Notes under the pieces: model-generated
Seen by the model: only the letters and a program-made list of their open reading frames with translations
Database searches by the model: none
What the model was told of the DNA's origin: nothing
Shown: piece after piece, positions 3,740-37,501 of the stretch
How positions within the stretch are numbered: the stretch's first letter is position 1
How the letters are laid out: every line of letters starts with the position of its first letter
Made by a program: the position numbers and the translations under genes
Assembly: GCA_963798915.1 (NCBI GenBank)
Contig: CAWCVB010000005.1
Location: 1-64,000, forward strand
DNA length: 64,000 nt
Direction: 5' to 3'
Source of the DNA: an uncultured Gemmatimonadales bacterium
GTDB taxonomy: Bacteria; Gemmatimonadota; Gemmatimonadetes; Gemmatimonadales; GWC2-71-9

Positions 3740-3946
3740 ATGGGTCTCGGGTCGCCGGCTCAGCGACGACTGATGACCGACGACCGATGACCTCCCTGTC
3801 ACACCCCCTCCTCATCTTCTTGCCACGGGCCCTCTCACGAAATGCCCGACATCGGATGTGCCGGGAAGGGGCTTGGATAGCGCTCTTGTCGTCAAGGGAC
3901 CGCTTCTTCCTGGCGGGTGAACGCTTCCCCCTCATTGGAGGTGAGT

Positions 3947-11952: not shown

Positions 11953-12042
11953 AACCGTTGGCTTCCCGGCGCGCCGTCTCGCCGTCTATGCCGTCTCGCC
12001 GTCTAGCCGTCTAGCCGTCTAACCATCTAACCGTCAAACTCC

Positions 12043-15771: not shown

Positions 15772-15783
15772 ATCTTTCCCCCC

Positions 15784-17587: not shown

Positions 17588-17589
17588 GG

Positions 17590-17992: not shown

Positions 17993-17993
17993 C

Positions 17994-20333
17994 TCAATCT
18001 CCCAGACTGAATTCCCGCGGCGCCCCTGTCCCCAGCAGGTTCCGCACGAAGTAGTCCCACCGGCGGCGGATGACATACGGCTCGTTCCCGAACCCGTGCC
18101 GGCGGTTGGGCAGGATGATGAGGTCGAAGTCCTTGTTGGCGTCGATCAGCTGGTTCACCACCAGCAGCGTGTTATAGAACGGCACGTTGTCGTCCATGGA
18201 GCCGTGCATCAGCAGCAGCTTGCCCTTGAGGTTCCGGGCCACGTTCTGGTTGGCCTGGTTGTCGTAATTGGTGGAATCCTTTCCGTAGCGTACCAGCAGC
18301 CCCTGCCACTTCTCGGCCCAGTCGTCCTCGTAATTGCGGTTGTCGTGGTTGCCGGCTTCCGAGATGCCCACCTTGAAGAAATCAGGGTAGCGGAACATGG
18401 CGTCCGCCGTGGCGTAGCCGCCGCCCGAGTGGCCGTAGATGCCGGCACGGTTGATGTCGATCCAGTGATAGCGTTCCGCCAGCTGCTTCATGCCCGCCAC
18501 CTGGTCGGGCAGCCCGTTGTCCCCCATGTCGCCGAAATAGGCGTCGTGAAATGACTTGGACCGCATCGGCGTGCCCATCGCGTCCAGCGCCACGACGATG
18601 AAGCCCAGTTCGGCCAGCGCCTGGTTGTCGCCCCTGGCCGGCGAGAAGGAGCGCGAGCCCACGCTTCCGGTCTGCGGGCCGGGATAGATGTGGTTGACGA
18701 TCGGATAGCTGCGGCTCGAATCGAGCGTGGTTGGCACGAACATCAGGCCGTAAATATCGGTCTTGCCGTCACGGGCCTTGACGGTGAAGGGCACCGGCGG
18801 CTTCCACCCGGTGGCCAGGAGCTTCGAGATGTCGGCCTTCTCGATGGTCTGCCTGAGCTTACCCTGCTTGTTCCGCACCACGGTGACCGGCGGAGTGTCG
18901 GGCGTTGAATAGCTGTCCACGAACCAGGCGCCGTCAGGCGCAAAGCTCACTGTATGGTCGGCATTCTCCGGTGTCAGCAGCTTCTCGCCGCTCCCGTCCA
19001 GCTTCACACTGTAGAGGTGAGTGAAGTAGGGATCCCGTCCCGCTTCGCGACCGGCGCCGGTGAAGTAGATGATGCCGGCGGACTCGTCCACCCGCAGGAC
19101 GTCCAGCACCGGACCGGGGCCCTTGGTGACCTGATTCTTGAGCTTGCCGCTGGCCAGGTCGTAGCGGTAGAGGTTGCCCCAGTCATCGCGCTCCGAATAC
19201 CACAGCACTTCGCCGCGCTTCCAGAGCACCCGCCAGCTGATGCCGTCCACGCCACTTTCGTAATAAGTGTCCTGGTGCTCGTGCAGCACGGTGCGCACCT
19301 CGCCCGTGGCGGCGTCGGCCACCCGCAGCGTCGCGTCCTTGTGGTCGCGCGAGCTGGACACGAAGGCGAGCTGGCTGCCGTCCGGCTTCCATTGCACGTC
19401 GGAAAAGGTGTCGCCACTGCAGGCCACATGGTCGCAGATGGTGGAGCGGTGCGGATCGGCCGGCATCTTGAGCCGCACCATGCCGCTGCCGTCGGCGTTG
19501 ATGATGACCCGGCTGATGCGGAAGATCAGCGAGTCGCCCGGCAGGGGATACTTCCACTCCTTGAGCACCGGATGGCCCACTTTGGTGCTCGCCAGGTACA
19601 TCTCGCCCACACCCCGGCCGTCGTGCTGGAAGGTCGCGATCTTCTTCGAATCGGGCGACCAGAGCAGCACCGGCCGATCACTCATGGTCCAGCCGGCGTT
19701 GTTGGTGGCGTAACCGTAGTCCTCGATGCCGTCGGTGGTGAGCTGGGTCTCCTTGCCCGTGGCGACGTCGCGCACCCAGAGATTGTTGTCGCGCCGGAAC
19801 GCGGCCAGCTTCCCGTCGGGCGAGACGATGGCATCCCGGCTCATCTGGCTCTGGACCTCAGCGGCCGGCGCGCAGGTGGTGCCGTCCGCGGTGCAGGTCC
19901 AGCGCTTGTCCTTCACCGAGAAGGTGATGGATCGGCCGTCCTCGGTGTACTCGAAGGTGGCAAAGGGAAGGCTGTCGGCGCTGTAGCTTGCCGCTGCCGC
20001 CTTGGACAGCGCCTCGGCGACCTTGGCCTGATTGAAGGCGTCGTTCCGGCTCTTCCGGGCCGGGTCCACCACGACGAACCGGGTTCCGGATGGCGTGTTG
20101 ACGCGATACCAGAACCGGTCGCCCGAAAGCCAGCTGGGCCGGACGCCGCTGTTGTAGACCAGCGGGAAGGTGCTCCTGGCCAGGAACTTCTCGGCCCGGG
20201 CATAATCGGCCGAGGTGACCGAGTCCGGGCGCCAGGGCGACTGCGCTGACAGGACGGGCGAGATGGGCAGGGCGGGCAGGACGGACAGGCCCAGGGCGGT
20301 CACGGAGATCAGCCGGACGTGCTTCCAGCGCAT
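17994..20333 (-). CDS. S9 family dipeptidyl-peptidase IV-like protein, secreted
   Basis: Signal peptide, DPP-IV beta-propeller region, GHSGGG nucleophile, DDNV and RRHGF. Confidence 0.92.
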   Translation of the reverse strand: MRWKHVRLISVTALGLSVLPALPISPVLSAQSPWRPDSVTSADYARAEKFLARSTFPLVYNSGVRPSWLSGDRFWYRVNTPSGTRFVVVDPARKSRNDAFNQAKVAEALSKAAAASYSADSLPFATFEYTEDGRSITFSVKDKRWTCTADGTTCAPAAEVQSQMSRDAIVSPDGKLAAFRRDNNLWVRDVATGKETQLTTDGIEDYGYATNNAGWTMSDRPVLLWSPDSKKIATFQHDGRGVGEMYLASTKVGHPVLKEWKYPLPGDSLIFRISRVIINADGSGMVRLKMPADPHRSTICDHVACSGDTFSDVQWKPDGSQLAFVSSSRDHKDATLRVADAATGEVRTVLHEHQDTYYESGVDGISWRVLWKRGEVLWYSERDDWGNLYRYDLASGKLKNQVTKGPGPVLDVLRVDESAGIIYFTGAGREAGRDPYFTHLYSVKLDGSGEKLLTPENADHTVSFAPDGAWFVDSYSTPDTPPVTVVRNKQGKLRQTIEKADISKLLATGWKPPVPFTVKARDGKTDIYGLMFVPTTLDSSRSYPIVNHIYPGPQTGSVGSRSFSPARGDNQALAELGFIVVALDAMGTPMRSKSFHDAYFGDMGDNGLPDQVAGMKQLAERYHWIDINRAGIYGHSGGGYATADAMFRYPDFFKVGISEAGNHDNRNYEDDWAEKWQGLLVRYGKDSTNYDNQANQNVARNLKGKLLLMHGSMDDNVPFYNTLLVVNQLIDANKDFDLIILPNRRHGFGNEPYVIRRRWDYFVRNLLGTGAPREFSLGD

Positions 20334-20772: not shown

Positions 20773-22699
20773 ATGATTTCCGTCTCCAATCTCGCCAAAG
20801 CATTCGGCGACCGGACGCTCTTTGCCGGCGCCGCCTTCCAGCTCCAGCCCGGCGAGCGCTACGGGCTGGTGGGCGCCAACGGCTCCGGCAAGACGACGCT
20901 GCTCCGCATCCTGACCGGCGACGAGCCGGCCACTGACGGCACCGTCTCCATGCCCAACCGCACCAGTCTCGGCGTGCTGCGGCAGGACCAGTTCCTCTAC
21001 GAGAACGAAGAAGTGCTGGCGGTCGCCATGCGCGGCAATGCCGAGCTGTGGCAGGCCATCGTCGAGAAGGAGCAGGTGCTGGCGCGCGCCGCCGAGCATT
21101 TCGATGCCGACCGCTACGCCCGGCTGGAAGACACGATCCTGCGGCACGACGGGTACGCCGCCGAGGCCCGCGCCGCCGAGATTCTCGAGGGACTGGGGCT
21201 GCCGGAGCCGGTGCACCGCCGGCCCATGTCCACCCTGTCCGGCGGCTTCAAGCTCAGGGTACTGCTGGCGCAGGCGCTCGCGGGCGGCCCCGACGCGCTG
21301 CTGCTGGACGAGCCCACCAACCACCTCGACATTCTCTCTATTCGATGGCTGGAAAAGTTCCTCCGCAACTTTGCCGGTCCGGTGGTGGTGATTTCGCATG
21401 ATCATCGCTTCCTGGATAACGTCGCCACCCACATCCTCGACGTGGATTACCAGACGGTCACGCTCTATCACGGCAACTACACCCGATTCCTGGAGACTCG
21501 GCGGGAGGAACGCGAGCGCCGGGAAAAGGCGATCGAGGCGCAGGAAAAGGAAATTGCGCATCATCAGCTGTTCGTGGACCGGTTCAAGGCCAAGGCCAGC
21601 AAGGCGCGCCAGGCCCAGAGCAAGCTGCGGCTGATCGAGAAGAAGACGGCGGAAATGGATTCACTGGCGCCGTCCTCCCGCCGCTGGCCCAACTTTCGAT
21701 TTACGCCCAGGCGTTCGAGCGGCCGCGAGGTGCTGGAACTCAAGGGCATACGGAAGTCCTACGGCGGGAACGAAGTGCTGCACGGCGTGGACCTGACGTT
21801 GATCCGGGGCGACCGGATGGCCATCCTGGGCCCCAACGGCATCGGGAAGTCCACCCTGCTCAAGATCGCCATGGGTGCGGCCGATGCCGACGCAGGCACG
21901 GTCACCTGGGGTTACGAGGCCCAGCCCGGCTACTTCGCGCAGGACCACAAGGACCAGTTCCGGAACGAGGCACTGACGGCGCTCCAGTGGATTGCCGAAG
22001 CGGCGCCGTCGGCGACGCCCGGAACGGTGCGCTCGGAGCTGGGACGGGTGCTCTTCAGCGGCGACGAAGCGGAAAAGCGGCTCGATGCGCTGTCGGGCGG
22101 GGAAGCAGCGAGGCTGGTCTTCTGCCGGCTTGCCGTGGAGCGGCCCAACGTGCTGGTCCTGGATGAGCCCACCAATCACCTGGATCTCGAATCAATCGAG
22201 GCGCTGGTCGAAACGCTCCAGTCCTACGAGGGAACCTTGGTCTTTGTGAGTCATGATCGCTGGTTCGTGGGACAGCTCGCCACGCGGATCGTCGAGATCA
22301 GGGCGCAGGGCATCCGCGATTACCAGGGCGGCTGGGACGATTATCTCGCCCAGTGTGGCGACGATCATCTCGATGCGGAGCGGGTGGTACTGGCGGCCAA
22401 GGTCGCCAGGACGGGCAAGGCGGGCAGGATGGGCAAGGCGGGCGGGGGAGACGGTGAAACCGCGTGCCGTGCCGTCAAACGAAAAGCAGCTGGCGGCCCA
22501 GCGCGATGCCATCACGGCGAAGATCGAGGCGGCCGAGCAGCGGCTGGGAGAAATTGACGCCAGGCTGAGCGATGTGGCGGGCTATCAGGCCTCGCGCGCG
22601 TCGGAATTCCATGAGCTCGGACGGGAACGCGCGTCGGTTGCCGGCGCGATCGAGCAGCTGATGGCGGAGTGGGAATCGGTGGAGCGGGAGATCGGGTAG
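20773..22699 (+). CDS. ABC-F family ATPase, frameshift near 22450
   Basis: Two NBDs (GANGSGKT/LSGG/DEPTNHLD; GPNGIGKS/LSGG/DEPTNHLD), no TM; C-terminal coiled coil LMAEWE continues in ORF 22253..22699. Confidence 0.9.
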
Positions 22700-22723: not shown

Positions 22724-22901
22724 CCAGCATCGGGACGTGTGCCGGCGGTGGGGCCGGTCTGAGACCGGCCCCTACGGGCTTCGCCCTTTCCTCCCGCCTT
22801 GCCCGTCTCCCGTCTTCCCAGCATCGGGACGTGTGCCGGCGGTGGGGCCGGTCTGAGACCGGCCCCTACGGGCTTCGCCCTTTCCTCCCGCCTTGCCCGT
22901 C
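22724..22901. repeat. Two identical 84-bp direct repeats, each with a GGGGCCGGTCT-G-AGACCGGCCCCTAC hairpin
   Basis: 22724-22807 equals 22818-22901; period 94. Confidence 0.9.
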
Positions 22902-22934
22902 CTGTTGTCACTGCCCTATCCTACCATTATACCC

Positions 22935-24221
22935 ATGTCATCATCATCGCTCATTGCCGCCCTGGCCCTCCCGCTCGGCGTCCTCATCGGCTGGCTGCTT
23001 GCCCGGAGTGAGGCCAGTGGTCTCAAGGCCACCCTGGAATCGGAGCGGAAGGCCGCCGCCGCCCAGGCCACATTGCTCGACACCGCCGAGGCGCGCCTCC
23101 GCGAGGCCTTCTCGGCGCTATCAGCGGACGCGCTCAAGTCCAATAACCAGCAGTTCCTCGATTTGGCCACCGTTTCGCTCACCCGGTTCCAGGACAACGC
23201 CTCACAGGGACTTGAAGCCCGCGAGAAGGCGGTCGCTGCGCTGGTGAAGCCGCTGGAGGACAGTCTCAAGCGGATGGACGACAAACTGGGGCTGGTCGAG
23301 AAGGACCGCACCTCTGCGTACGCGGAACTCCGCACCCACATGGAACAGATGACGCTCAACCAGGTCAATCTCCAGACCGAGACCCGCCACCTGGTCTCGG
23401 CGCTGCGGACGCCACACATCCGCGGGAGCTGGGGCGAGATCCAGCTCCGCCGTGTGGTCGAGATGGCCGGCATGGTGGATCACTGCGATTTTGACGAACA
23501 GGTCTCCGCCTCTGACGGCGACGGCGGCCGGCTCCGGCCCGACATGATCATCCGGCTCCCGGGCGGCAAGTCCATCGTCGTTGATTCCAAAGCGCCCCTG
23601 GATGCGTACTTGCGGGCGATGGACGCGCCCGACGAAGACGCTCGCGCACGCTGTCTGGAGCAGCACGCGCGACAAGTGAAGACCCACATCAATCAGCTCG
23701 CCGCCAAGCGCTACTGGGACCAGTTTCCTGACGCGCCTGATTTCGTGGTGATGTTCCTGCCGGGAGAATCCTTCTTCAGCGCCGCGTGCCAGTGCGACCC
23801 AACCCTGGTGGACACTGCCGTGAGTGAATCGGTGATTCCGGCGAGCCCGACGACGCTGATCACGTTGCTGCGGACCATCCAGTTCGGCTGGCGGCAGGAA
23901 CGCATCGCCGAGAGCGCCGAGGAGATCAGCAAGCTGGGCCGCGAGCTGCACGAGCGGCTGCGCAGCTTCAGTCATCACCTCGCCGACTGCGGCAAGGGCA
24001 TCCAGCGCGCCATCACGTCGTACAACAATGCCATCGGTTCGTTCGAGAGCCGGGTGATGGTGTCGGCCCGCCGATTCCGCGAGCTGGGCGCGGGGACCGG
24101 GGAAGAAGTGGAGATGCTGGAACCGGTGCAGGAGACGCCCCGGGAGTGCAACGGGTCATCGGCCATCGGTCTTCAGTCGTCTGACGACCGACGACTGACG
24201 ACTGACGACTCTTCATGCTAG
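22935..24221 (+). CDS. rmuC: DNA recombination protein RmuC
   Basis: N-terminal TM, coiled coil, RGSWGEIQL, RPDMIIRLPGGKSIVVDSKAPL, DFVVMFLPGE, SPTTLI. Confidence 0.93.
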   Translation: MSSSSLIAALALPLGVLIGWLLARSEASGLKATLESERKAAAAQATLLDTAEARLREAFSALSADALKSNNQQFLDLATVSLTRFQDNASQGLEAREKAVAALVKPLEDSLKRMDDKLGLVEKDRTSAYAELRTHMEQMTLNQVNLQTETRHLVSALRTPHIRGSWGEIQLRRVVEMAGMVDHCDFDEQVSASDGDGGRLRPDMIIRLPGGKSIVVDSKAPLDAYLRAMDAPDEDARARCLEQHARQVKTHINQLAAKRYWDQFPDAPDFVVMFLPGESFFSAACQCDPTLVDTAVSESVIPASPTTLITLLRTIQFGWRQERIAESAEEISKLGRELHERLRSFSHHLADCGKGIQRAITSYNNAIGSFESRVMVSARRFRELGAGTGEEVEMLEPVQETPRECNGSSAIGLQSSDDRRLTTDDSSC

Positions 24222-27200
24222 CATCGCTCTCCACCCTCGACACCACCCACCCGCTCGCACGCAAGCTGCTGGTTGCGCCCGACATTGCCTGGGGCTGGGA
24301 GACGATCGTCGCGCTGGCGCGTCAGCGCCGGGGCCTCGTCGGGCTGGGAGGCCACCACGCTCCTGGGTCTCGCCGAAGATCTTGCGTTCACCGAGATGGG
24401 ACAGCACAGTCTCCGCCGCGCGAGCGATGTCGAGCTCACCATGCTGGTGGACCGGGCCCTCATGGAGCGCTGCACGGCAAAGGCCGTTGGCTCCGGCTTT
24501 GCCGCCCTGGCCACCGGCCTCGGCTTTCGCCGGGCCGTGAAGGATGCCGTGCTCACCCTGCGTACGGCGGGCGTGAGCGCGCAGCAGGTGCAATCGTCAG
24601 TCGAGCGGCATACGCCGGCGTGGGATGCCGCGGCAGTGCTCGCCGCATATGAGAATCTGCTCGCCCAATCCACACTGCTGGATCCCGCCGCGCTCCTCCG
24701 TCTCGCGATCGATCGGTTCGACGAGGAGGCGCGCCATGTGATGGTCGGCCACACCCTGCTTGCTGCTGAGCTGGCGCCGCACGGACTGGCACGGGCGCTC
24801 ATGGAGAAGCTGATTGCCGCCGGCGCCTCCGTACTGCCGGAGCCGCTCCCGCGTCACTCCACCGAGCCCGCTCGCAGCGGCGCCTCCGATCTCGATTTCT
24901 TCGTGGCTTCATCCCCATCAGCCGAACTTCTCGAGGTGCTGCGCCGGGTCGTCGAGGAAGGGCGACGGTGGGATGAAGTGGAAATCGTCGCCACCGACCG
25001 CGACACCTACGGGATTGCGCTCGATGCACTCTGCCAGCATAAGGCAATTCTCTGCACCCTGTTCGATGGCGTACCGCTGACGCGCACGCGCGTGGGCCGC
25101 GCGGCCGAGCGCTGGCTTGCGTGGATGGCGGACGGATTGCCGGCGGAGCTGGTTCGAGAAGCGCTGGAAGCCGGCGACGTCTCCATGTCCGCATCCCCAG
25201 AGCGATCCCCAGATTCCGCGGAGTACGCGGATGGATCCATGAAGAGCGCTGAGGCCGTGGTGTCGTTGCAGGCTCAACAACCTGCGGATGGCGCCGGGCA
25301 ATCTGTGCAATCCGTGAAATCTGTGGACCCGTTCAGGCGGCTGAAGATCGGTTGGGGCCGGCGTCGCTATGAGGAGGCCTGCGAACGGCTGCGCGGCGAT
25401 CATTTCACCAAGCGGATGTCCCGATGGGAGGATGAGGCGGACGCGGAGTACGCCGAGCGGCAGGCACGCCGCCGTACGGAGCTTGCACCGCTCTTGCCGT
25501 TTCTCGAGTGGCTCCTTTCGGTCACGCCACCCGTGCCTGAACTTGGTGCGCACGGCGAGGTTCCCTGCTCATGCGCGCGGCTTGCGAGGGCATTGCGCGC
25601 GCTGCTGGCGAGGATGCCGCTGCATGGTGACGCGGACCGGCGAGCCGCCAGGCGGCTGCGCGACCGGCTGTCCGAACTGGCGGAGGGCGACGACACTGAT
25701 GTCCGGTTCGCCATGGCCATGGCGGAACTGCGCGACGGCATCAGCGAGCTCCGCGCCTGGACCGAAGCGAGCCCGGCTGAGCGGCCGCGCTTCTCCTCCG
25801 GCGGCGCCCTTCACCTGACCGACGTTGCGCATGGCGGCACCACCGGCCGCCCCCGCGTCTTTGTGGTGGGGCTCGATGCCGATCGCACCGGCGGCAGCCG
25901 GGTGCAGGATCCGATCCTGTCCGACAGCGCTCGCCGCCTGATCGGTGCCGATCGCCTGCCCCTGAGCAGCGATCGGCGCGAGGAGGGTCGCTGGCAGCTC
26001 TCGGCGATGCTGGCCCGCATCACAGGGCGGCTCACGCTCTCGCTATCGACCGCCGATGACGGAGCGGGGGACACGGTGAACCCGGCGCATGTGGTGCTCG
26101 AACTCTTCCGCCAGCAGCAAGGCGATGAGTCGCTGGGATACGAGAAGCTCCACCAATCGCTGGGCGAACCGTGCTGCGCGGTCCCGCGCAACGGGTCCGC
26201 CTTTGACACGCGCGGCATCTGGCTCTCCGCCATTGCCGGCGGCTCAAGCGACTATCGCGATGGCACCGCGCTGGTGCGCGCGGCGTGGCCCCTGCTCGAC
26301 GCCGGGCTCACGGCGGCGGCTGCCCGGGCCGGCAGCGCCTTCTCCGCCTGGCAGGGCCTGGTTCCTGCCGCCGCGGGGCGGCTCGATCCACGCCAGAGCA
26401 CGGCGCCCATTTCGGCGACTTCGCTTGAACTGCTCTCGTCCTGTCCGCTGGCCTGGTTCTATCACTACGGCCTTGGCCTGCGGCCGCCCGAAGTCCAGGA
26501 GTATGACAGTGAATGCTGGCTGAGCCCGCTCGATCGCGGCTCGCTGCTGCACAGCGTCTACGAGCAGCTTGCCCGTGCCTATCAGGGTCGCCAGCCGGAG
26601 CTTCTCGACGATGCCGCACGCAGGGCGGCGCTGGCCATTGCTGACGCGCTCCTTCTGCAATACCGCGAGAACCTGGTTCCACCCAGTACGGCGGTATACG
26701 AGACGGAAGCGCGGGAAATTCGTGCCTCGACGCTCGCCTTCCTCGAGGGCGAACGCGACAATGCGTTGAGCGGGCGCACCACGTGGGAAGGTTTCGAGCT
26801 GGCCTTCCCGCGGAAGTCCCAGGCGCGGTTTCCGGTGGGCCAGGGCTCCATCCCGGTCCGGGGATTCATCGACCGGGTGGACCGCACCCGTGACGGCAAG
26901 CTCGTCGTCATCGACTACAAGACCGGCAGGCCTGACAGGTACCGGAAGGACAAGCATGACGGACCGTTCCGGGGCGGGCGGCACCTGCAGCCCGCCATCT
27001 ACGCCGCGGCCGCGCATCAGGAACTGAACGCCGAGGTGGCGCGCTTCGAGTATCGCTTTCCCACCGAGCGCGGCGAGAACAATGACGTCGCGTACGACGC
27101 CGCTGAACTTGGCGGCGCGAGTGCCATCGTGGCCGGCCTCATGCGGCACGTGGAGCTGGGGGAGTTTCCGCCCACCAACGACGCGGATGACTGCGCCTAT

Positions 27201-27335
27201 TGCGATTACGCGCCAGTGTGCCGGGCCTCGAACGACGGTCGTCGCACCACATCGCCACGCGCGGCGTGGGCCGAGCGCCAAGCGGAATCGCTGGAGCAAT
27301 ACCGCGACATGCTGGCGCGCCGAGCGGCCGAATGA
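24215..27335 (+). CDS. AddB-like protein: inactive helicase-like region plus Fe-S PD-(D/E)XK nuclease; frameshift near 24335
   Basis: SATSLE..CPLAWF, RGSLLH, GFIDRVD..VIDYKTG, LQPAIY, CAYCDYAPVC; start MLASL.. lies in another frame. Confidence 0.85.
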
Positions 27336-30300
27336 GCAGCAGCGTAACAGCCGACCAGCCCGATCGCGATCGCATCGAAACCGATCTGGAGACGAATCTC
27401 CTCGTCGAAGCGGGTGCGGGGTCCGGCAAGACCAGGGGATTGGTGGACCGCATGCTCGCGCTCATTGCCCGCGGCACGCCGGCCGACCAGATCGCCGCGG
27501 TCACCTTCACCCGGAAGGCCGCCGCCGAGCTGCGCGAGCGGTTCGAGGAGAAGCTCGAGCAACGCGGGCTGCCCGGCCGGGACCAGGCCTTCATCGGCAC
27601 CATCCACGCCTTCTGCGGGCGGTTGTTGCGTGAGCATCCGTTGGAGGCCGGCCTCGATCCGGGGTTCGAAGAGGTGGACGAGGAGGGCTGGCCGGTGCTG
27701 GTGCAGCATTTCTGGCGGCGCTGGCTCGAGCGGCTGCGCAGCGAGGACGATGCCGGGCTCCGCTCGGTCATCGAACTGGGGATTGATCCGCGCGACCTGG
27801 CGGCTGGCTTTGCCACGCTGGTCACATATCCCGATGTCACCTTCCCGTCCCCAGCGGTTGCGGCGCCGGATCCCGCGCATTGCCGGGAGCGGCTGCTGGC
27901 GCTGCTGGCAAGGACACGCGCGATGCTGCCCGGTGAGGAGCCGGACAACGGGTACGACTCCCTCCAGCGCACCTGTCGCCGGCTGGGCTTCTGGCAGCGG
28001 ACCCAGGACTGGAGTCACCTGCCGACCCTGGCTGCAGCCCTGGCATCACTGAGCGGCAAGAACTGCAGCGTCACCCAGAATCGCTGGGCCGACAAGACGC
28101 TGGCCAAGGCGCTGGGCGAGGAGTGGGCGGATTTCCTCACCGCTGAGGCCGACGTACTGCTCACGCAATGGCGCGAGCACTGCTACCACCCGGTCATGGC
28201 GCTCCTCACCCACGCCGCCGAAGCATTCAGCCGGGAGCGGATGCGAGCCGGCACCCTCGGCTTCGGCGACCTCCTGGTCGGAGCATCTCATCTCTTGCGT
28301 GGCAGCGCCCGCGCCCGTCGCGTGCTGGGGGAGCGCTTCCGTCACCTGCTGGTGGACGAGTTCCAGGATACCGATCCAATCCAGGCGGAAATCTGCTTCC
28401 TGCTGGCGTCCGATCCTTCCGAGGGCGTGGATTGGCGGCAGGTCACGCTGCGTCCCGGCGCCCTCTTCGTTGTGGGTGACCCGAAGCAGAGCATCTACCG
28501 GTTCCGGCGCGCCGACATCCAGACCTACGAGATGGTGAAGCGACGGATGGCCGAGCAAGGTGCGGTGCTCCGGCTCACCAGCAACTGGCGCTCGGTGCAC
28601 CCGATCGCGACGATGGTGGATGGCCACTTCGTGCGTCACTTCCCGGCGGATGGCTCGCCGGTGCAGGCGCCGTTTGCGCCACTCGCCACGGTGAATCCGC
28701 CTGCGGATGCCGACGGAGTTTTCTGCTATGGCGTGACACCGGCCGGGAACAACAAGGACGATATCCACGCCGAAGACGCCGCGCGCGTGGCATCGCTCCT
28801 CGCCGAACGCATCCGCAGCGGCAGGTACGTACCCTCGGATTTCCTGCTGCTCGCCATGAACCTCAAGTCCCTCGCACCCTACGCCAGGGAGCTTTCGGCG
28901 CGCAATGTTCCGGTCAGCGTTACCGGCGCGCCGCTGCCGCAGGAGGAGGAACTGGGCGAACTGCTCATCGTCCTCCGCGCGCTGGCTGATCCATCCAACC
29001 CGGTGCTGGTCGCGGCAGCGCTCGAAGGGCTCTGTTTCGGCCTCTCGCCCGCCGACCTCGACGCCGGCCGCTCGGCCGGGCTCGCGTTCACCGGGTGCGA
29101 GCCGCCGACGGAGGCGAACACCAGGTGTGGCCAGGCACTCGGGGTTCTGCATGAATGGTGGCAGGCGTCGCGGCGGATGCCGCCTGACCTTCTGCTGGAG
29201 CACCTGCTCGATGCCACCGGGCTGCTGCCGTACGCGGCGGGCCTCGCGCTTGGTGACGCTCGTGCCGGCGCGCTGCTGCATCTCGTCGAGCTGCTGCGGC
29301 GGGAAAGCGGAGCATCGGGTCTGTCGCTGCCGGGCGGGGTCGAGCTGATCGAGACGGCGTTGGACGCGTCGCGAGCCGAGACACCGCTCCGGCCCGGGCG
29401 GCGTGAATCGGTGCGGGTCATGAACCTGCACAAGGCCAAGGGACTCGAGGCGAGGGTCGTGATCCTGGTGGCGCCGGTGGCGCAGTCGGAGCACGCGCCA
29501 TCGGTACACGTGCGTCGGGACGGCGATGGTGCGGCGAGCGGCGGCATGCTCATCGCCGGAGACAGGACGGTCCTGGCCCAACCGGCAGGATGGCAGGAGA
29601 TGGCGGCGCGCGAAGCCGAATTTGCGGTGGCGGAACGGCAGCGCCTGCTCTATGTGGCTGCCACCCGGGCCAGAAGGGAGCTGATCGTCTCGCAGCTGGC
29701 CCTGCAACTGAAGACAAAGATGGCGGACGACAAGTCCTTCTGGGCGCCGTTTGCGGACGCCCTCACGGCGCACGCTGTGCGCCTGACGCTGCCAATGGAT
29801 GAGCCGGCCGGACGCGAGCAGCCGGTTGAGACGTCGGAACAGATCCGTGCGCGCTGTGCTGAGGCGAGGACGGCTCGCTCTCGCGCGGGAGTGACCGGTG
29901 TTCGGCTGACCTCGGTCACGCGCACCTTGCGTGAGGAGCGCGAGGATGGGCGGATGGATGGCAGTGCGCGCCGGGGTGCTGGGGCGGCATGGGGGCGGCT
30001 GGTGCACCGTGCCCTGGAGGCGATGGGGCGGGGGCGTGAGGGCTTGTCGCTCGAGCGCTACGTGCGCGCACTCGCGCGCGAGGAGCAGCCACTCTCAGCG
30101 CCACAGGAAGTCGAGGCGACGGTCGCCCGGGTGCTGGCTCAGGTGCGACGCATGCATGAGGACGCCTCTTGGCAGCGCCTCGCCGCTGCCACCGACCGCG
30201 CGTTCGAGCTGCCGATTCTGACGGTGGAGCGCGAGGGGGACATGGATGTCATCACCCAGGGCATTGCCGATGCGGCGGCCCTGGTGGAGGGTGAGTGGCT

Positions 30301-30454
30301 GATCTTCGACTGGAAGACCGACCATGCGGACGACACCACATGGAGGCATCGGGAAGCAGAATACCGCCGGCAGGTGGATGCGTACGCGCGCATGATCGAG
30401 CTGCGCTCGGGTGTATCGGCGCGGGGCGAGGTCGTTCGAGTGCAGGAGACCTGA
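27332..30454 (+). CDS. AddA-like UvrD/SF1A helicase with C-terminal nuclease
   Basis: EAGAGSGKT, TFTRKAA, TIHAFC, VDEFQDT, VGDPKQSIYRFR, HKAKGLE, LLYVAATRA, GIAD..IFDWKTD; ATGA overlap with the upstream gene. Confidence 0.92.
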   Translation: MSSSVTADQPDRDRIETDLETNLLVEAGAGSGKTRGLVDRMLALIARGTPADQIAAVTFTRKAAAELRERFEEKLEQRGLPGRDQAFIGTIHAFCGRLLREHPLEAGLDPGFEEVDEEGWPVLVQHFWRRWLERLRSEDDAGLRSVIELGIDPRDLAAGFATLVTYPDVTFPSPAVAAPDPAHCRERLLALLARTRAMLPGEEPDNGYDSLQRTCRRLGFWQRTQDWSHLPTLAAALASLSGKNCSVTQNRWADKTLAKALGEEWADFLTAEADVLLTQWREHCYHPVMALLTHAAEAFSRERMRAGTLGFGDLLVGASHLLRGSARARRVLGERFRHLLVDEFQDTDPIQAEICFLLASDPSEGVDWRQVTLRPGALFVVGDPKQSIYRFRRADIQTYEMVKRRMAEQGAVLRLTSNWRSVHPIATMVDGHFVRHFPADGSPVQAPFAPLATVNPPADADGVFCYGVTPAGNNKDDIHAEDAARVASLLAERIRSGRYVPSDFLLLAMNLKSLAPYARELSARNVPVSVTGAPLPQEEELGELLIVLRALADPSNPVLVAAALEGLCFGLSPADLDAGRSAGLAFTGCEPPTEANTRCGQALGVLHEWWQASRRMPPDLLLEHLLDATGLLPYAAGLALGDARAGALLHLVELLRRESGASGLSLPGGVELIETALDASRAETPLRPGRRESVRVMNLHKAKGLEARVVILVAPVAQSEHAPSVHVRRDGDGAASGGMLIAGDRTVLAQPAGWQEMAAREAEFAVAERQRLLYVAATRARRELIVSQLALQLKTKMADDKSFWAPFADALTAHAVRLTLPMDEPAGREQPVETSEQIRARCAEARTARSRAGVTGVRLTSVTRTLREEREDGRMDGSARRGAGAAWGRLVHRALEAMGRGREGLSLERYVRALAREEQPLSAPQEVEATVARVLAQVRRMHEDASWQRLAAATDRAFELPILTVEREGDMDVITQGIADAAALVEGEWLIFDWKTDHADDTTWRHREAEYRRQVDAYARMIELRSGVSARGEVVRVQET

Positions 30455-31524
30455 TGGCGGGCACCAGACTGCAGCGATGGATGGATCTCCTGGCGGCACT
30501 GCTGCGGCGCCGCTATCCCGTCACGTTTGATGAATTGCGACAGGATGTTCCCGCCTACAGTGGCACGCCGGAGAGCGTCCGGCGGATGTTTGAGCGCGAC
30601 AAGGACGACCTGCGCCAGTTTGGCATTCCGATCGAGACGGTGAGGGAAGACGGCGACGTGCTGGGCTACCGGCTCCGCGCACGCGATTTCTACATGCCCT
30701 ACCTGGCGGTGGTCGACGCGGAACGACGCACCGAGCCGGCTCGCGTCAACCGGGATGGCTTTCGTGGGCTGGAACTGCTCGCCTTCACCGCCGATGAGCT
30801 CGCGGCGATCGCCGAAGGCGCGCGGCAGGTGCTGCACCTGGGAGACGACGATCTCGCCGGCGACGCGGGCTCGGCGCTCCGAAAACTGGCCGTGGACCTG
30901 CCGATGGATGGCGTGGAGCACGCGTCCAGCCGGGAGCGTGTCGTGCCGGCGACGGCACGCCACGACGAGGCCGTGCTCGACGAACTGGCGGACGCGATGG
31001 AGCGCCGGAAGCGGGTGAGCTTTGACTATGCCTCGGTGGCCACGGCCGCCATGACCCACCGCACAGTCGAGCCGCTGGGTCTCTTCTACCTCAGCCATCA
31101 TTGGTATCTCGCCGCCCGGGAACCGGGCGAGGAACTGGTCAAGAATTTCCGGGTGAGCCGCATGACGAGCGCGCACGCCAATGGCCACCGGCCCGGAAGT
31201 CCCGATTTCGATCGACCGCAGGGATTCGATCTTCGCATGCACGCGCGCCAGCGGAACACCTGGGAGCTGGGCGATGGCAACTGGCTGGAGGCCGTGGTCG
31301 CCATCACCAGCCGCTCCGGTGCGGCGGACGCCGCCGCGCAGCTCGGCGCCGAGGTGCCTGGCGAGGCGGCGCAGCGGACCTATCAGGTGCGCCGCTTGGA
31401 CGCGTTCGTCCGGTGGATGCTGCCGCTCGCCGGGCAGGTGACACCGATTTCGCCACCGGAACTCATCGAGGCATGGCACGACGCCGTGCGGGACACGCTC
31501 GCACTCTACCAGGGCACCGCATGA
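30454..31524 (+). CDS. HTH-WYL-WCX regulator, PafB-like
   Basis: RRMFERDKDDLRQFGIPIE (PafB-type), RTVEPLGL..HWYL..NFRVSRM; TGATG overlap. Confidence 0.88.
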   Translation: MAGTRLQRWMDLLAALLRRRYPVTFDELRQDVPAYSGTPESVRRMFERDKDDLRQFGIPIETVREDGDVLGYRLRARDFYMPYLAVVDAERRTEPARVNRDGFRGLELLAFTADELAAIAEGARQVLHLGDDDLAGDAGSALRKLAVDLPMDGVEHASSRERVVPATARHDEAVLDELADAMERRKRVSFDYASVATAAMTHRTVEPLGLFYLSHHWYLAAREPGEELVKNFRVSRMTSAHANGHRPGSPDFDRPQGFDLRMHARQRNTWELGDGNWLEAVVAITSRSGAADAAAQLGAEVPGEAAQRTYQVRRLDAFVRWMLPLAGQVTPISPPELIEAWHDAVRDTLALYQGTA

Positions 31525-32501
31525 GTGACACCGCAGCAGACCAGCTCCGGCGCGTCCTGCTCCTCATTCCCAAGCTGGCCGACGACGAAAATCACGACAT
31601 CAACGAGGTCGCGGCGTTGCTTGGTGTGGATCGCGCCACTCTGCTGCGGGATGTGCGTTCACTGGCCAGCAGGTTCGACGATCCCGGCGGCTTCGTGGAG
31701 GGAGTCACTATTACCTATGACGACGAGGTCGTGTCGGTGCATGCCAGCCACTTCCTGCGTCCGATGCGGCTCACCGTGAGCGAGCTGGCCGCGCTGGAGC
31801 TGGGACTGGCGATGCTGCGCGGTCTCCGTCCGCCCGAGGACCAGGCCGTGGTGGAGAGCGCACGGGAGCGGCTGCGCAAGGTGCTGGCAGAGCTGCCCGA
31901 CAGCTCCGATCATCTGGCGCTGCGTACCGCAAGTCTGGGCGCGCTGACGCCGGCCCTTCGTGCCATGCGGGAGACCCTGCGTCTGGCGTCGCGCGACCGG
32001 CACAAGGTCCGGTTCGGGTACCAGAAGGCGGACGCCGCCTCGGCGAGCGAACGGGTCATCTGTCCCTATGGCCTGCTCTTTTCGCGGGGCACCTGGTACC
32101 TGGTGGCGCACTGCGAATCGAGTGCTGGCCTGCGGGTGTTCCGGCTCGATCGCGTCACCGCGGTAGAACGGTTGGACGAGCGCTTCGACGGGCCCGAGGA
32201 GGCTGTGCTCGCGAGCGTGGTGCGCGACGGCCATGTGTTTCATACGGAGGATCCGGTGGCCAGCGTCAGCATCCGGTATGCACCGGCCGTGGCGGGATGG
32301 ATCGCGGAGCGGGAAGGCGTGGAACTGGCGGAGGATGGCTCGCTCACACGCGACTACCCGCTGGCAGACACCGACTGGGCAGTGCGGCATGTACTGCAGT
32401 ACGGCCCCGACGCGGAAGTGCTGGCGCCGGAGGAAGTGCGGGTGATGCTGCGGGAGCGATTGACGGGGGCCGGACGTCGAGCGTCAAGCGTCAAGCGCTG
32501 A
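31521..32501 (+). CDS. HTH-WYL-WCX regulator, PafC-like
   Basis: QLRRVLLLIP, RPMRLTVSELAAL, WYLVAHC..RVFRLDR, WAVRHVLQYGPDAEVLAP; ATGA overlap. Confidence 0.88.
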   Translation: MSDTAADQLRRVLLLIPKLADDENHDINEVAALLGVDRATLLRDVRSLASRFDDPGGFVEGVTITYDDEVVSVHASHFLRPMRLTVSELAALELGLAMLRGLRPPEDQAVVESARERLRKVLAELPDSSDHLALRTASLGALTPALRAMRETLRLASRDRHKVRFGYQKADAASASERVICPYGLLFSRGTWYLVAHCESSAGLRVFRLDRVTAVERLDERFDGPEEAVLASVVRDGHVFHTEDPVASVSIRYAPAVAGWIAEREGVELAEDGSLTRDYPLADTDWAVRHVLQYGPDAEVLAPEEVRVMLRERLTGAGRRASSVKR

Positions 32502-33166: not shown

Positions 33167-33250
33167 AATGAGTCGAGGGTCAAGGGTCAAGGGTCGCGGG
33201 TCGGAGCTGCGCCATGGCTCTGTCCGTACAAGGCTCGGGGTGGCTCCGGA

Positions 33251-33489
33251 GCTGTCATCCCGAGCGCAGCGAGGGATCTTGCCCGCCGTGCTTCGGAGCC
33301 GGTTGAGTAGATCCTTCGCTTCGCTCAGCTGTCATCCCGAGCGCAGCGAGGGATCTTGCCCGCCGTGCTTCGGAGCCGGTTGAGTAGATCCTTCGCTTCG
33401 CTCAGCTGTCATCCCGAGCGCAGCGAGGGATCTTGCCCGCCGTGCTTCGGAGCCGGTTGAGTAGATCCTTCGCTTCGCTCAGGATGACA
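33251..33489. repeat. Three identical tandem 77-bp REP-like units
   Basis: Units start at 33251, 33328 and 33405; only the last has the complete GGATGACA end. Confidence 0.95.
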
Positions 33490-33640
33490 GATATTGTCTC
33501 CGACGACCGACGACCGACGACCGACGACCGCACGACCGCCGACCGACGACCGACGACCGACGACCGACGACCGCCGAGCCGCCGAGCCAACGAGCCGCCG
33601 CAACCCTACATTGAACCTTTCCTTCTTCCGGAGACCCGCC

Positions 33641-34864
33641 ATGACCGCAGACGCACGCTTCTTGTTGCTGCTGCTCGCCCTTGTCGCCGCCGCTTGCAGC
33701 GAGGGCAGCGGGGCCACCTCGATCGTGACCGATAGCGCGGGTGTCGAGATCGTGACCAGTTCGGCGCCAGCGTGGACGTCCGGAGAGGCATGGACCGTCG
33801 ACACCGCGCCGCTGCTCGATATCGGCGGCAGCGGCACCGATCCGCACTTCGATCTCGTCGAGGTGGTCGACGCGGTACGGCTCAGCGGCGGTCGCATTGC
33901 GGTCATGAACAACAGCATTCCCGACCTCCGGTTCTACGATTCCAGTGGCGCCTACCTGAGTACCACGGGCCGAGCCGGCGAGGCACCCGGAGAATTCCGT
34001 CGTATCGCATCCATCCTGGCTGGTCCGGGCGACACCCTCTATCTCTATGACTACCAGCTCCGGCGGATGAATCGCATCGCGCCGGATGGGCGTTTTCTCT
34101 CCTCCGTACCGATGCCGCCATCGGGAGGGAAACTTGGCGTCGAGCCATTTGCCCGCCTTCCCGATGGCTCGTGGGCGGCCACGGTGGAGGAGTTCTCGGT
34201 TCAGACTGGCGGCGGTGCACAGCGCGATAGTGTGGCGGTGCTGCACCTGCCCGCCTCGCTGCAAGCCGTGGCGGACACGGTCGGCAGCTTTCCGGCCAGT
34301 GAGCTGTTCATCCAGACGAGCGGCGAGGGCGAGAACCGCTCCGTCAGGGTGATGCCACTCCCGCTGGGTTTGTCGACGACCTTTGCGCTGCAGGACTCAT
34401 CCATCCTCGTCGGGAATCCTGAGCGCTATGAAATTCGAGCCTACCGGTCCGACGGCACGCTGACCCGAATCATTCGCCGGCCAGTTGATCGTGAGCCGCT
34501 TAGCCACGGCGAACTCGATCGGTGGAAAGAGGACGAACTCGCCAGCGTGGATGCCAGAGGGAAGGAGCGGCTGGAGGCCGCATGGAAGGTTGCGCCGCTT
34601 ACCTCACTCAAACCGGCCTACGGGAGCATCCACGTTGACCAGGACGGCGATCTCTGGGTGGAGCACGTCAAGCTGGTGCGGTCCGACTCCGGAACGGCGG
34701 ACGTCTTTGATTCCCTGGGACGCCTGCTCGGTACTGTGGCGCTCCCTCCCGGACTCCAGATCGCCCGGATCGGGCCGGACTATATCCTGGGAATCTGGCG
34801 TGATGAGATGGACTTGGAGCACGTCAGGATGTATCGCTTGAGAAAGCCGGCTGGACGGGACTAG
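33641..34864 (+). CDS. Lipoprotein, 6-bladed beta-propeller-like
   Basis: Lipobox AAAC, TDSAGVEIV, GRAGEAPGEF, DQDGDLWV. Confidence 0.75.
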   Translation: MTADARFLLLLLALVAAACSEGSGATSIVTDSAGVEIVTSSAPAWTSGEAWTVDTAPLLDIGGSGTDPHFDLVEVVDAVRLSGGRIAVMNNSIPDLRFYDSSGAYLSTTGRAGEAPGEFRRIASILAGPGDTLYLYDYQLRRMNRIAPDGRFLSSVPMPPSGGKLGVEPFARLPDGSWAATVEEFSVQTGGGAQRDSVAVLHLPASLQAVADTVGSFPASELFIQTSGEGENRSVRVMPLPLGLSTTFALQDSSILVGNPERYEIRAYRSDGTLTRIIRRPVDREPLSHGELDRWKEDELASVDARGKERLEAAWKVAPLTSLKPAYGSIHVDQDGDLWVEHVKLVRSDSGTADVFDSLGRLLGTVALPPGLQIARIGPDYILGIWRDEMDLEHVRMYRLRKPAGRD

Positions 34865-34930: not shown

Positions 34931-36148
34931 ATGTCAGGCGACTCCCGCCCGATCCTGTTCCTGCTCGCCTTCGTCGCGGCTTGTGGTGAAGGTGCGCGCG
35001 GCCCCACCGCCGTCGTCACCGACAGCGCCGGTGTCGAGATCGTGACCAGCTCGGCGCCAGCGTGGAAGCCAGGAGAGGCGTGGACCATCGACACCACGCC
35101 ACTGCTCGACATCGGCGGCAGTGCGACCGACCCGCATTTTGACCTGCTGCAGGTGGCTGGTGCGACCCGGCTCAATGACGGTCGCGTGGCGGTACTCAAT
35201 TCCGGGACATCGGATGTGAGGTACTACGACTCGACCGGCACGTGGCTCTCATCGAGCGGCCGAAAGGGACAGGGTCCCGGTGAATTTGAGATGGCGGGAG
35301 CACTCTTCCATCTGCCCGGCGACTCGCTCGTTGTCTATGACTACCAGCTTCGGCGCATGAGTCGTCTGGCGCCGGATGGTTCGTTCCTGCCTTCCGTTTC
35401 AGTGGCGGAGGGCAGGGGAGGTCCGATGGTTATCCCCATGGGCCGGCTCGCGGACGGATCGTGGGCAGCCACCATTGGCAACGTCTTTACCATGGAGACC
35501 CGGGCTGGGGTGGCGCGACCGCGCCTGGTGCTGCTGCACGTCGCCCCCGACATGATCCAGGTGACCGATACCATCACGGTCCTGTTGGACAACGAGGCAT
35601 GGGTGGAGACCGGTGGGAGCGGTGAACAGCGGTTCATGTCCGTGCGGAGCCTGCCGCTGGGGCTCTCGTCCCCCAGCACGGTGGGTGATTCGCTCATTTT
35701 CGCAGGTGACGCAGCACAATACGTCATCGGAGTCTACCGGCCTGACGGGACACTGGTCCGGAGCATCCGCTACCAGGGACCGAGAACGCCGGTGACCGAC
35801 GACATCCTGGAACGGGTCAAGGCCAGCGAGCTGGAAGGGGTGTCGGATCACGACCGGGCCGAAGCCGAGGCGCGCTGGGCCAAGATGCCGAAGCCGAAGG
35901 AACTGCCCGCGTTCGATGCATTTCTCGTGGATGCCGACGGCAATCTCTGGGTGAGCGAGGGACGCGCGCTGCCGACGGATCCTGCCGATGCCGATGTGTT
36001 CGATCCCGCGGGGAAACTGCTAGGTCGTGTTCCATTGCCGGCCGGTTTTGCTCTCTCCGAAGTTGGCCACGACTATATGCTGGGTGTCTGGAAGGACGAC
36101 GATGGGCTGGAGCACGTCAGGATGTATGGGATTGTGAAAGGCGGCTAG
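34931..36148 (+). CDS. Lipoprotein, 6-bladed beta-propeller-like (tandem paralog)
   Basis: Lipobox VAAC, GRKGQGPGEF; collinear with the upstream gene. Confidence 0.75.
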   Translation: MSGDSRPILFLLAFVAACGEGARGPTAVVTDSAGVEIVTSSAPAWKPGEAWTIDTTPLLDIGGSATDPHFDLLQVAGATRLNDGRVAVLNSGTSDVRYYDSTGTWLSSSGRKGQGPGEFEMAGALFHLPGDSLVVYDYQLRRMSRLAPDGSFLPSVSVAEGRGGPMVIPMGRLADGSWAATIGNVFTMETRAGVARPRLVLLHVAPDMIQVTDTITVLLDNEAWVETGGSGEQRFMSVRSLPLGLSSPSTVGDSLIFAGDAAQYVIGVYRPDGTLVRSIRYQGPRTPVTDDILERVKASELEGVSDHDRAEAEARWAKMPKPKELPAFDAFLVDADGNLWVSEGRALPTDPADADVFDPAGKLLGRVPLPAGFALSEVGHDYMLGVWKDDDGLEHVRMYGIVKGG

Positions 36149-37257: not shown

Positions 37258-37501
37258 GCTGTGACTCCTGCGTTCAGTCGTCGGTCGTCGGTCGTCGGTC
37301 GAGGGTCGAGGGTCGTGGGTCGCAGGCTGCGGGTCGTCAGTCGTCAGTCGTCAACAATGAAGTTTGTCATCCCGAGGCCGCGTAGCGGCCGAAGGATCTA
37401 CTGGTCCGGGTCCCGACGCTGGTGAGTAGATCCTTCGCTTCGCTCAGGATGACAGATCTCGCGGACCGACGACCGACGACCGACGACCGACGACCATCCC
37501 G

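Follow-up and report, generated by a model that had tools for sequence, protein, structure and literature searches.

What does a pair of proteins resembling PafB and PafC do in a Gemmatimonadales genome, encoded directly behind a helicase-nuclease of the AddAB type? The question is raised by a stretch of 64,000 nucleotides (nt) from an uncultured bacterium (contig CAWCVB010000005.1, positions 1 to 64,000; hereafter the window), in which five co-oriented genes occupy positions 22935-32501 of the plus strand in the order rmuC, addB-like, addA-like, pafB (encoding WYL1) and pafC (encoding WYL2). A first-pass annotation had read them as a self-contained damage-sensing or anti-foreign-DNA module, in which the sensor is co-expressed with the resection enzyme that would make its ligand, single-stranded DNA (ssDNA). 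Of this, the PafB/PafC identity of the pair, the non-actinobacterial host and the linkage to addAB are supported by our analysis, whereas the self-contained module and the role against foreign DNA are not. We think it fairly probable that the operon is the Gemmatimonadota version of the actinobacterial PafBC response, that is, a repair operon which would be activated by ssDNA and by its own regulators, and not a defense module.

Compared with all solved structures, WYL1 matched only three sequences at E ≤ 1: two forms of Mycobacterium smegmatis PafB (1.1e-24 for 7p5x_AY, and 2.6e-24) and the PafB half of the Arthrobacter PafBC fusion 6sj9. The best solved matches of WYL2 were the PafC half of 6sj9 (2.9e-30) and M. 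smegmatis PafC (7p5x_AX, 1.3e-16). Other WYL chains, CapW and BrxR included, matched WYL2 at 4e-7 to 0.06, and chains labeled 'WYL domain-containing protein', which we take to include DriD, at about 1e-6 to 1e-7, far weaker than PafC. For BrxR and CapW the values were 0.0056 and 0.00047, and neither matched WYL1 at E ≤ 1. The comparison with PafB, PafC, BrxR and CapW that had been proposed for the two proteins thus places them with PafB and PafC, the other matches being weak or absent. Pfam recognizes HTH_PafC, WYL and WCX domains in WYL2 and the WYL domain alone in WYL1; in many WYL1 homologues a WCX domain is called as well. Close homologues of WYL1 come from Gemmatimonadales, and some of them are already named 'proteasome accessory factor B' by the automatic annotation of JGI.

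Species-representative genomes were scanned with an alignment of 44 PafB-type proteins, which yielded 598 stretches, 594 of them confirmed, and the best 80 loci (L001 to L080) were kept. They comprise 23 from organisms named Gemmatimonad- or Longimicrobiales, 4 from Acidobacteriota, 49 from Actinomycetota and one from a 'delta proteobacterium' (L080); nearly all Gemmatimonadota records are metagenome bins. L015 and L016 were counted as Gemmatimonadota-type, L016 by its place in the tree and L015 by identity only, giving 25 such loci, or 26 with the window. L079 carries PafA and groups with the actinobacteria. Neighboring genes were annotated from hand-picked open reading frames (ORFs) and by tblastn; a gene caller based on G+C content at third codon positions (GC3) mis-called several loci, with antisense ORFs in L001, for instance.

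Both halves of the pair were present in 72 loci; in the other 8 one half was missing or short, and these were excluded. The tree (42 pairs in 84 rows; LG+G4, quick search) was computed from all 22 Gemmatimonadota-type loci among the 72 and the window, the 4 Acidobacteriota loci, L079, L080 and 13 of the 44 actinobacterial loci, the remaining 31 being left out. A single branch with a support of 100 in the SH-like approximate likelihood ratio test (SH-aLRT) splits all 42 PafB-type from all 42 PafC-type sequences. On either side of it the Gemmatimonadota form one clade (support 99 and 95), which in both cases divides into the same three subclades, of 2, 7 and 14 members. It follows that the duplication that gave rise to PafB and PafC is older than these phyla, unless both genes passed between them together. 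By the evidence of the trees, pafB and pafC have since evolved together, and their mirrored topologies fit vertical descent. Judged by structure matches and tree clades alike, WYL1 and WYL2 are orthologues of PafB and PafC, as the first-pass annotation had proposed in calling one PafB-type and the other PafC-type, and their host, then described as apparently non-actinobacterial, belongs to the Gemmatimonadales.

Natural fusions are indirect support for a partnership of the two proteins. When representatives clustered at 50% identity were searched exhaustively for homologues, 153 clusters matched at E ≤ 1e-30, and among the 150 listed, nine representatives are 685-763 residues long with two matched stretches; in the only one checked (P0121), residues 382-690 are 49% identical to WYL2. 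The mirrored trees and the overlapping ATGA junction of their genes point indirectly in the same direction, and WYL1 and WYL2 most likely form the predicted 1:1 heterodimer. An apparent PafB-PafC fusion in L007 was rejected as a probable frameshift artefact, its C-terminal part appearing out of frame in the alignment and matched by tblastn in two pieces.

The residues by which PafBC is reported to contact DNA are largely kept. In the available excerpts of one report, R46 and R50 of M. smegmatis PafB read two guanines of the GTC element (PMC8635444). The corresponding R44 and R48 of WYL1, within RRMFERDK, do not vary among the 39 PafB-type sequences aligned, which come from three phyla. For ssDNA binding, six PafB residues including R181, Y196, R211 and R214 are described as important, as are R201 and R204 of PafC (PMC11804915, likewise in excerpts). 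In our alignments, WYL1 retains the four named PafB residues and WYL2 both PafC arginines; such ssDNA-binding residues are common to many WYL domains and therefore do not discriminate between families.

If the pair works as in actinobacteria, its target promoters should carry a recognizable element. The in vivo PafBC motif is given as tGTCgg(N10)tA(N3)T, with tA(N3)T as the -10 element, a GTC that PafB reads and no -35 element (PMC8635444, in the same excerpts). A putative promoter of this type, TGTCAC-TGCCCTATCC-TACCAT, which the first-pass annotation overlooked, lies directly upstream of rmuC. Its -10 element ends 7 nt before the rmuC start codon and therefore implies a leaderless or near-leaderless mRNA; a sigma-70 -35/-10 pair was not found upstream of rmuC. 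A stricter pattern, TTGTCR-N11-TANNNT, has this box as its single match on both strands of the 64 kb, with 0.08 expected. The closest relative of the window, L001 (82% PafB identity), carries TGTCAG-CCCCCTATCC-TACCTT 8 nt before the ATG of its rmuC, the remainder of the spacer having diverged.

The looser pattern TGTC-N12-TANNNT had 21 matches in the 25 Gemmatimonadota-type loci and the window (397 kb), 16 of them in promoter position, which we defined as no more than 60 nt before the start codon of an ORF that has a GC3 excess and 80 codons or more. In the same 397 kb, control spacings of 9, 10, 11, 13, 14 and 15 nt gave 2, 1, 1, 5, 8 and 4 matches, of which 1, 0, 1, 1, 0 and 1 were in promoter position, and scrambled cores at N12 gave 2-6 matches. 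Across the 49 actinobacterial loci, the N12 pattern was found 17 times (9 in promoter position), as against 3-10 matches (0-4 in promoter position) for the other spacings. None of its 4 matches in the 4 Acidobacteriota loci was in promoter position, so the box of this phylum, if there is one, may differ. The Gemmatimonadota sites share the consensus cTGTCA(C/G)ACCCC-N5-TAnnnT and fall into two classes by the distance from the -10 element to the start codon, one leaderless with 4-10 nt and one with 20-31 nt and a Shine-Dalgarno-like GGAG. A matrix derived from 16 sites of other loci, neither the window nor L001 among them, gave 18.5 for the site at 3793 of the window, 17.8 for the rmuC site and 9.6 for the third-best. 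The rmuC box resembles a target site of PafBC, through which the PafBC switch would probably turn on itself together with the repair enzymes. A reading of the motif as a site for an extracytoplasmic function (ECF) sigma factor or as a LexA box was set aside, the motif being non-palindromic and having a TAnnnT -10 element.

The genes that follow the boxes outline a candidate regulon. A box precedes the whole rmuC-addB-addA-pafB-pafC operon in the window and in L001, addB-addA in L016, addB (divergent from pafB) in L042, and a ybjN-like gene followed by addB-addA in L007. Eight loci have one before pafB or its upstream ORF (L005, L007, L009, L011, L014, L018, L022, L067). Further boxes lie before DUF2779 (L024), ARPP-1 (L021, L022) and a superfamily 1 (SF1) helicase with an RNase_H_2 domain (L015). 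Another neighbor, encoded close to pafBC in 8 of the 25 Gemmatimonadota-type loci, is a protein of 416-431 residues with an N-terminal VWA domain, whose gene has a box before it in 7 of these 8 (L002, L003, L007, L012, L018, L024, L067). It looks like a recurrent member of the predicted regulon; its gene is absent from the window. The boxes before VWA, DUF2779, ARPP-1 and pafB genes look like those of a dispersed regulon with addAB as a frequent target, and the self-contained module of the earlier annotation is not borne out.

The VWA genes were located at 16565-17821 in L002, 2803-4053 in L003, 7064-8353 (minus strand) in L007, about 3438-4208 in L011, 8480-9775 in L012, 8970-10214 (minus strand) in L018, 3499-4770 in L024 and 7450-8715 in L067. 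In actinobacterial loci, boxes were found before pafA (L025, 3422-3443; L045, 2346-2367), before a gene for a DSHCT helicase (L032, 13294; L060, 15076; L071, 14189) and before that of an RNase_H_2 protein (L034). In some of these loci the box stands 3-10 nt before pafA, or before the DSHCT (HelY-like) helicase gene downstream of pafC, which suggests that these neighbors are PafBC targets there.

Within 3 kb of pafBC, AddB/AddA-like pairs were found in 7 of the 26 loci, in four arrangements: upstream in the same operon (window, L001), directly downstream on the same strand (L005, L017), downstream with a box of their own (L016) and divergent from pafBC (L007, L042). The linkage on which the first-pass annotation had relied is thus present in relatives. 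As to synteny, what recurs is the neighborhood and not the exact operon, since the five-gene order was seen only in the window and L001, and at least five well-flanked loci (L002, L010, L014, L020, L021) have no addAB despite 8-10 kb of flank on both sides. L012 has a UvrD_C ORF 8 kb upstream, and L004, L009, L013, L019 and L042 are too short to judge, L042 being positive nevertheless. By sequence the pairs fall into three groups (window/L001/L007, L005/L042 and L016/L017) with 24-33% identity between groups, compared with 34-47% for PafB across the same loci. The association therefore arose, or was kept, with different helicase-nucleases, and the three groups may represent distinct families. 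Co-expression of pafBC with addAB is plausible in the window, L001, L005 and L017. Mycobacterial adnA expression is reported to depend exclusively on PafBC (PMC8682763, available in part).

The AddA-like protein of the window has a Walker A motif (GAGSGKT), the motif VDEFQD and a C-terminal nuclease motif (FDWKT), and its solved relatives are UvrD, PcrA, AddA and RecB. The NCBIfam family addA_alphas matches it at 4.1e-65, under the family cut-off. The AddB-like protein carries IDYKT in its C-terminal PD-(D/E)XK domain and CAYCDYAPVC (Cx2Cx5C), a cysteine motif presumably tied to an iron-sulfur cluster; neither a Walker A motif nor a solved relative was found for it by sequence. Against the NCBIfam equivalog cut-offs, AddA scored 220.8 (cut-off 860.75) and AddB 35.1 (cut-off 486.5). 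The other AddAB-like genes lie at 12271-18635 in L005, 5611-11938 in L016, 7250-13679 in L017, 118-3273 in L042 and 52-5807 in L007. Regular-expression searches found no Cx2Cx5C in the L005/L042 and L016/L017 groups, and in the latter no strict Walker A in AddA and no strict nuclease pattern in AddB.

Pupylation genes are missing from this context. None was detected by Pfam and NCBIfam scans of about 45 large ORFs of the window, which agrees with what had been noted from the sequence, and the absence extends to relatives: tblastn found no PafA in the window, in any of the 25 Gemmatimonadota-type or 4 Acidobacteriota loci, or in L080. In contrast, PafA is encoded upstream of the pair in 46 of the 49 actinobacterial loci and in L079, and of the three actinobacterial loci in which it is missing, L070 and L075 extend less than 1.3 kb upstream. 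Likewise, 32 ORFs located in the 10 kb before pafB of three actinobacterial loci, among which only PafA was identified by family scan, had no tblastn match in the window, the Gemmatimonadota-type and Acidobacteriota loci or L080. The missing pafA is a difference of genomic context, not of protein family. Four Acidobacteriota loci (L050, L053, L058, L063) also hold PafB/PafC orthologue pairs with neither pafA nor addAB nearby, in L050 and L058 close to ATP synthase genes; the same two genes are absent around the pair of L080, where PafB and PafC form a fused ORF.

The structure of the operon agrees with joint transcription. All four junctions that the first-pass annotation described were located: the ATG of addB at 24215 overlaps the rmuC stop codon TAG (24219-24221) by 7 nt, and ATGA (27332-27335), TGATG (30452-30456) and ATGA (31521-31524) connect addB with addA, addA with pafB and pafB with pafC. 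No plus-strand terminator-like site lies at a gene junction, the sole one on this strand (32052) being inside pafC, and the total count of such sites equals the shuffled expectation. The RmuC domain is full length (profile positions 3-289 of 291), and the protein is 75% identical to its L001 counterpart. Its last 20 codons cross a heptamer repeat (CTGACGA, 4.3 copies, 24181-24210) that also holds the 7-nt overlap and lengthens RmuC by 20 codons past the end of homology with L001, where an overlap with the rmuC stop (2627-2629) would likewise arise from an in-frame ATG at 2616. Upstream of the operon lies a co-oriented ABC-F ATPase gene, as in L001, and downstream a convergent PadR gene.

In the mechanism we propose, DNA damage, above all double-strand breaks, would generate ssDNA, which would bind the WYL domains of the PafB/PafC pair. 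The wing-helix of PafB would then read the GTC of TGTCAC at -26, and the complex would bring the housekeeping RNA polymerase to a promoter that has the -10 element TACCAT and no -35 element ('sigma adaptation'). A near-leaderless transcript of rmuC, addB, addA, pafB and pafC would follow. AddAB would resect the ends, leading to repair and to more ssDNA, and rising PafBC would maintain a positive feedback until the ssDNA is gone. Heterodimer formation, activation by ssDNA, promoter use, induction and feedback are all predicted steps of this chain.

Several points weigh against this reading, beginning with the fact that the whole case is built from sequence comparison. The loose box pattern has 3 matches in the window with 1.0 expected, the two besides the rmuC box being antisense within coding regions, and 2 of 20 block-shuffled windows reached the matrix score of the rmuC site. 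As this makes the shuffle control of the matrix weak, our case for the box is based on the exact-pattern test and the spacing controls. The bases after GTC are AC in the rmuC box and gg in the mycobacterial consensus. Two of the six ssDNA-binding residues of PafB differ in WYL1 (R204 to E, R208 to K), and Gemmatimonadota PafB has an insertion of about 25-35 residues after the wing-helix that actinobacterial PafB lacks. Because the loci were collected by way of the RMFERDK motif, PafB-like proteins are favored among them, and the tree was built with no outgroup of other WYL regulators. Mycobacterial pafBC is not induced by damage (PMC7617703), so the proposed autoregulation departs from the model system. 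Finally, addB is frame-broken in the present assembly. The PafB insertion covers alignment columns of about 113-170 (WYL1 residues of about 84-115, consensus around YLPYL...GYRxL) and is also missing from acidobacterial PafB.

The broken frame, which the first-pass annotation overlooked, could mean that the module is decaying, with addB a true pseudogene and the operon no longer yielding a working resection enzyme. The ATG at 24215 is indeed out of frame with the 3.1-kb ORF: 43 codons (24215-24343) belong to its frame, and the other 994 are read in a different one. We nevertheless give this little credence. In L001 and L007 these 43 residues and the remainder of AddB share one frame, and the DNA alignment with L001 places one extra base in the window near 24342-24344. 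The 994 codons are open, 74% identical to L001 and retain the nuclease and cysteine motifs. Moreover, the ABC-F gene likewise switches frame near 22448-22482, and an alpha-galactosidase (10685-11092 / 11019-11834) and AcrB (61966-62526 / 62468-64000) are split in the same way. With four such breaks in 64 kb, an indel-prone assembly is the likeliest cause, and the break in addB is probably an assembly indel rather than a sign of gene decay; for the same reason, programmed frameshifting was set aside. It is also unlikely, if somewhat less so than decay, that the neighborhood is accidental, pafBC being a general regulator that came to stand behind rmuC-addBA by chance, with an unseen promoter of its own and no special tie to AddAB. 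The restriction of the five-gene order to the window and L001, the 19 of 26 loci without addAB beside the pair (five of them well flanked) and the acidobacterial pairs near ATP synthase genes would all agree with this. On the other hand, addB/addA lies within 3 kb of the pair in 7 of 26 loci, where chance would, by our rough estimate, account for well under 1% if the two genes occur once in a genome several Mb in size; these cases cover four arrangements and three AddAB groups, and in five loci (window, L001, L007, L016, L042) a box lies directly upstream of addB or its operon. Between addA and pafB of the window we found neither a box nor a sigma-70-like promoter, and the addA/pafB and pafB/pafC junctions overlap.

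The remaining alternative takes up the earlier suggestion of a role against foreign DNA: the WYL pair would be a BrxR- or CapW-like regulator of an anti-phage system, with RmuC and the AddAB-like enzyme as effector nucleases. PADLOC links RmuC to retron/DRT-associated RmuC (3e-52), AddA to GajB-type helicases and the WYL proteins to CRISPR-associated WYL models, and an RmuC domain is described as the effector of the Shield defense system (PMC10270631, available in part). Some relatives have suggestive neighbors, namely Schlafen/AlbA_2, AAA_22 and an Eco57I-like gene in L014, HNH and PIN in L002, Fic and PIN in L067 and NYN in L022 and L024. However, the PADLOC matches are to generic domains and no complete system was found by it in the window; BrxR and CapW are many orders of magnitude weaker matches of WYL2 than PafC (1e-16 to 1e-30) and have no match to WYL1 at E ≤ 1. 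The flanking genes are of housekeeping type (ABC-F ATPase, S9 peptidase, PadR), no integrase or tRNA was found near the operon, AddA and AddB carry ordinary repair-type motifs, and the mirrored trees fit vertical descent. With nothing specific in favor of it, we regard a defense function as improbable and retain the PafBC-type repair operon as our reading.

Measured against known systems, the pair is closest to PafBC of mycobacteria and other Actinomycetota (6sj9, 7p5x, 9fnd), with which it shares the tandem order of the paralogues, pafB before pafC, the best solved matches and tree clades, the RMFERDK helix with both guanine-reading arginines, the WYL arginines for ssDNA binding, a GTC element equally far from a TAnnnT -10 element and a double-strand-break helicase-nuclease among its apparent targets (adnAB in mycobacteria). 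It differs in its phylum, in having no pupylation gene nearby, in its box (TGTCA(C/G)ACCCC instead of tGTCgg), in the PafB insertion and in being probably autoregulated, in one operon with its targets. BrxR of BREX and CapW of CBASS, which act as repressors, share the HTH-WYL-WCX architecture and are encoded beside the genes they control, but they are homodimeric regulators of defense islands, unlike the two paralogues found here. The enzyme resembles AddAB, AdnAB and RecBCD in its two subunits, a UvrD-type motor with PD-(D/E)XK nuclease in AddA and a C-terminal PD-(D/E)XK with Cx2Cx5C in AddB, and departs from them in scoring far under the equivalog cut-offs and in its place after rmuC and before a presumed regulator. 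Outside Actinomycetota, WYL activators of SOS-independent damage responses are reported for Caulobacter crescentus (DriD) and Moraxellaceae (DdaA). In the available parts of these reports, DriD is activated by ssDNA (PMC9186387) and DdaA controls a damage regulon. Both are single-gene homodimers with operator motifs of their own, not encoded with addAB and not PafBC orthologues. The authors of the DriD study consider AddAB resection a likely but untested source of the ligand (PMC9186387, in part).

The operon described here would be a natural system for testing AddAB as the source of the ssDNA signal. To our knowledge, PafBC has been studied only in Actinomycetota, where the pair sits in the Pup-proteasome locus. 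One report puts forward its unusual reprogramming of RNA polymerase as a principle of mycobacteria and further actinobacteria (PMC8635444, in excerpts), and how far PafBC and DriD are conserved is counted among the open questions in a review (PMC7617703). Our search, which did not cover subscription-only literature, found no paper that pairs PafBC or 'proteasome accessory factor' with Gemmatimonad-. New, as far as sequence can tell, are the PafBC orthologues in a distant phylum and a matching promoter box at the same spacing, which would show that the mechanism travels without pupylation and without mycobacterial accessory factors. We tentatively advance, as a possibility short of an expectation, that 'sigma adaptation' by PafBC is an older, portable switch that is neither peculiar to actinobacteria nor tied to the proteasome, also runs the damage response of Gemmatimonadota and perhaps Acidobacteriota, and in Gemmatimonadota forms a positive-feedback loop with AddAB. 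If so, an ssDNA sensor co-transcribed with, or encoded beside, the AddAB that makes its ligand would constitute a self-amplifying switch specific for double-strand breaks.

Table 1. Positions of the operon genes, candidate promoter elements and the upstream duplication in the window
Feature	Position	Strand	Description
rmuC	22935..24221	+	DNA recombination protein, RmuC family, 428 residues; Pfam RmuC PF02646, 1.6e-101
addB-like nuclease subunit	24215..27335	+	C-terminal PD-(D/E)XK; Pfam PDDEXK_1, 5.4e-37; frame broken near 24342-24344
addA-like helicase-nuclease	27332..30454	+	Pfam UvrD-helicase, 1.1e-53; UvrD_C; PDDEXK_1
WYL1, pafB orthologue by sequence	30454..31524	+	356 residues; Pfam WYL, 4.3e-18; contains RMFERDK
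WYL2, pafC orthologue by sequence	31521..32501	+	326 residues; Pfam HTH_PafC, 4.2e-14; WYL; WCX
Putative PafBC-dependent hybrid promoter	22906..22927	+	-26 TGTCAC, 22906-22911; -10 TACCAT, 22922-22927; fits published motif
Second PafBC-like box	3797..3818	+	TGTCACACCCCCTCCTCATCTT; cA-N3-T variant of the -10; top matrix match in window (18.5)
Tandem duplication	22724..22901	+	94 bp, perfect, 1.9 copies; tandem repeat finder, 100% matches

Downstream of the second box, the ORFs 3881-4285 and 4261-4899 had no Pfam match. A third PafBC-like box (1131-1152), whose -10 element has a first base other than T, precedes an ORF of 50 codons, the start of which resembles an internal stretch (MNPLVKLRDVLPKLAGKTIERTML...) of ORF 4261-4899.

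The window has a G+C content of 63-70% in 2-kb steps, and scans for Rfam families and tRNAs gave no matches in it. It is rich in repeats. The 94-bp duplication lies between the ABC-F gene and the promoter box of the operon, ending 4 nt before the latter, and each unit carries a strong GC hairpin (-47.3 kcal/mol, z = -3.3); it may be a terminator, a repetitive extragenic palindromic (REP)-like element or an assembly duplication. At the matching place L001 has CTGCCCATC-type repeats instead. Tandem arrays of 7-9-nt units (CTGCCCATC, GCCGTCTC, CGACGAC, GGGTCGA) fill intergenic regions and some gene ends, for example at 8756-8836, 15655-15788, 17579-18013, 24181-24210, 33497-33596, 49569-49782, 50376-50581 and 58352-58558, and similar arrays lie upstream of rmuC in L001. 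A dispersed REP-like element with GATCCTTCGCTTCGCTCAGGATGACA occurs in six copies (11907-11962, 15615-15670, 33444-33499, 37409-37464, 52268-52323, 54639-54694), and a 77-nt unit holding it is present in three tandem copies of 100% identity at 33250-33482. The adjacent ORFs 33494-34864 and 34931-36148, which had no Pfam or NCBIfam match, share a stretch of 289 nt at 72% identity (33708-33996 and 34998-35286) and are probably tandem paralogues.

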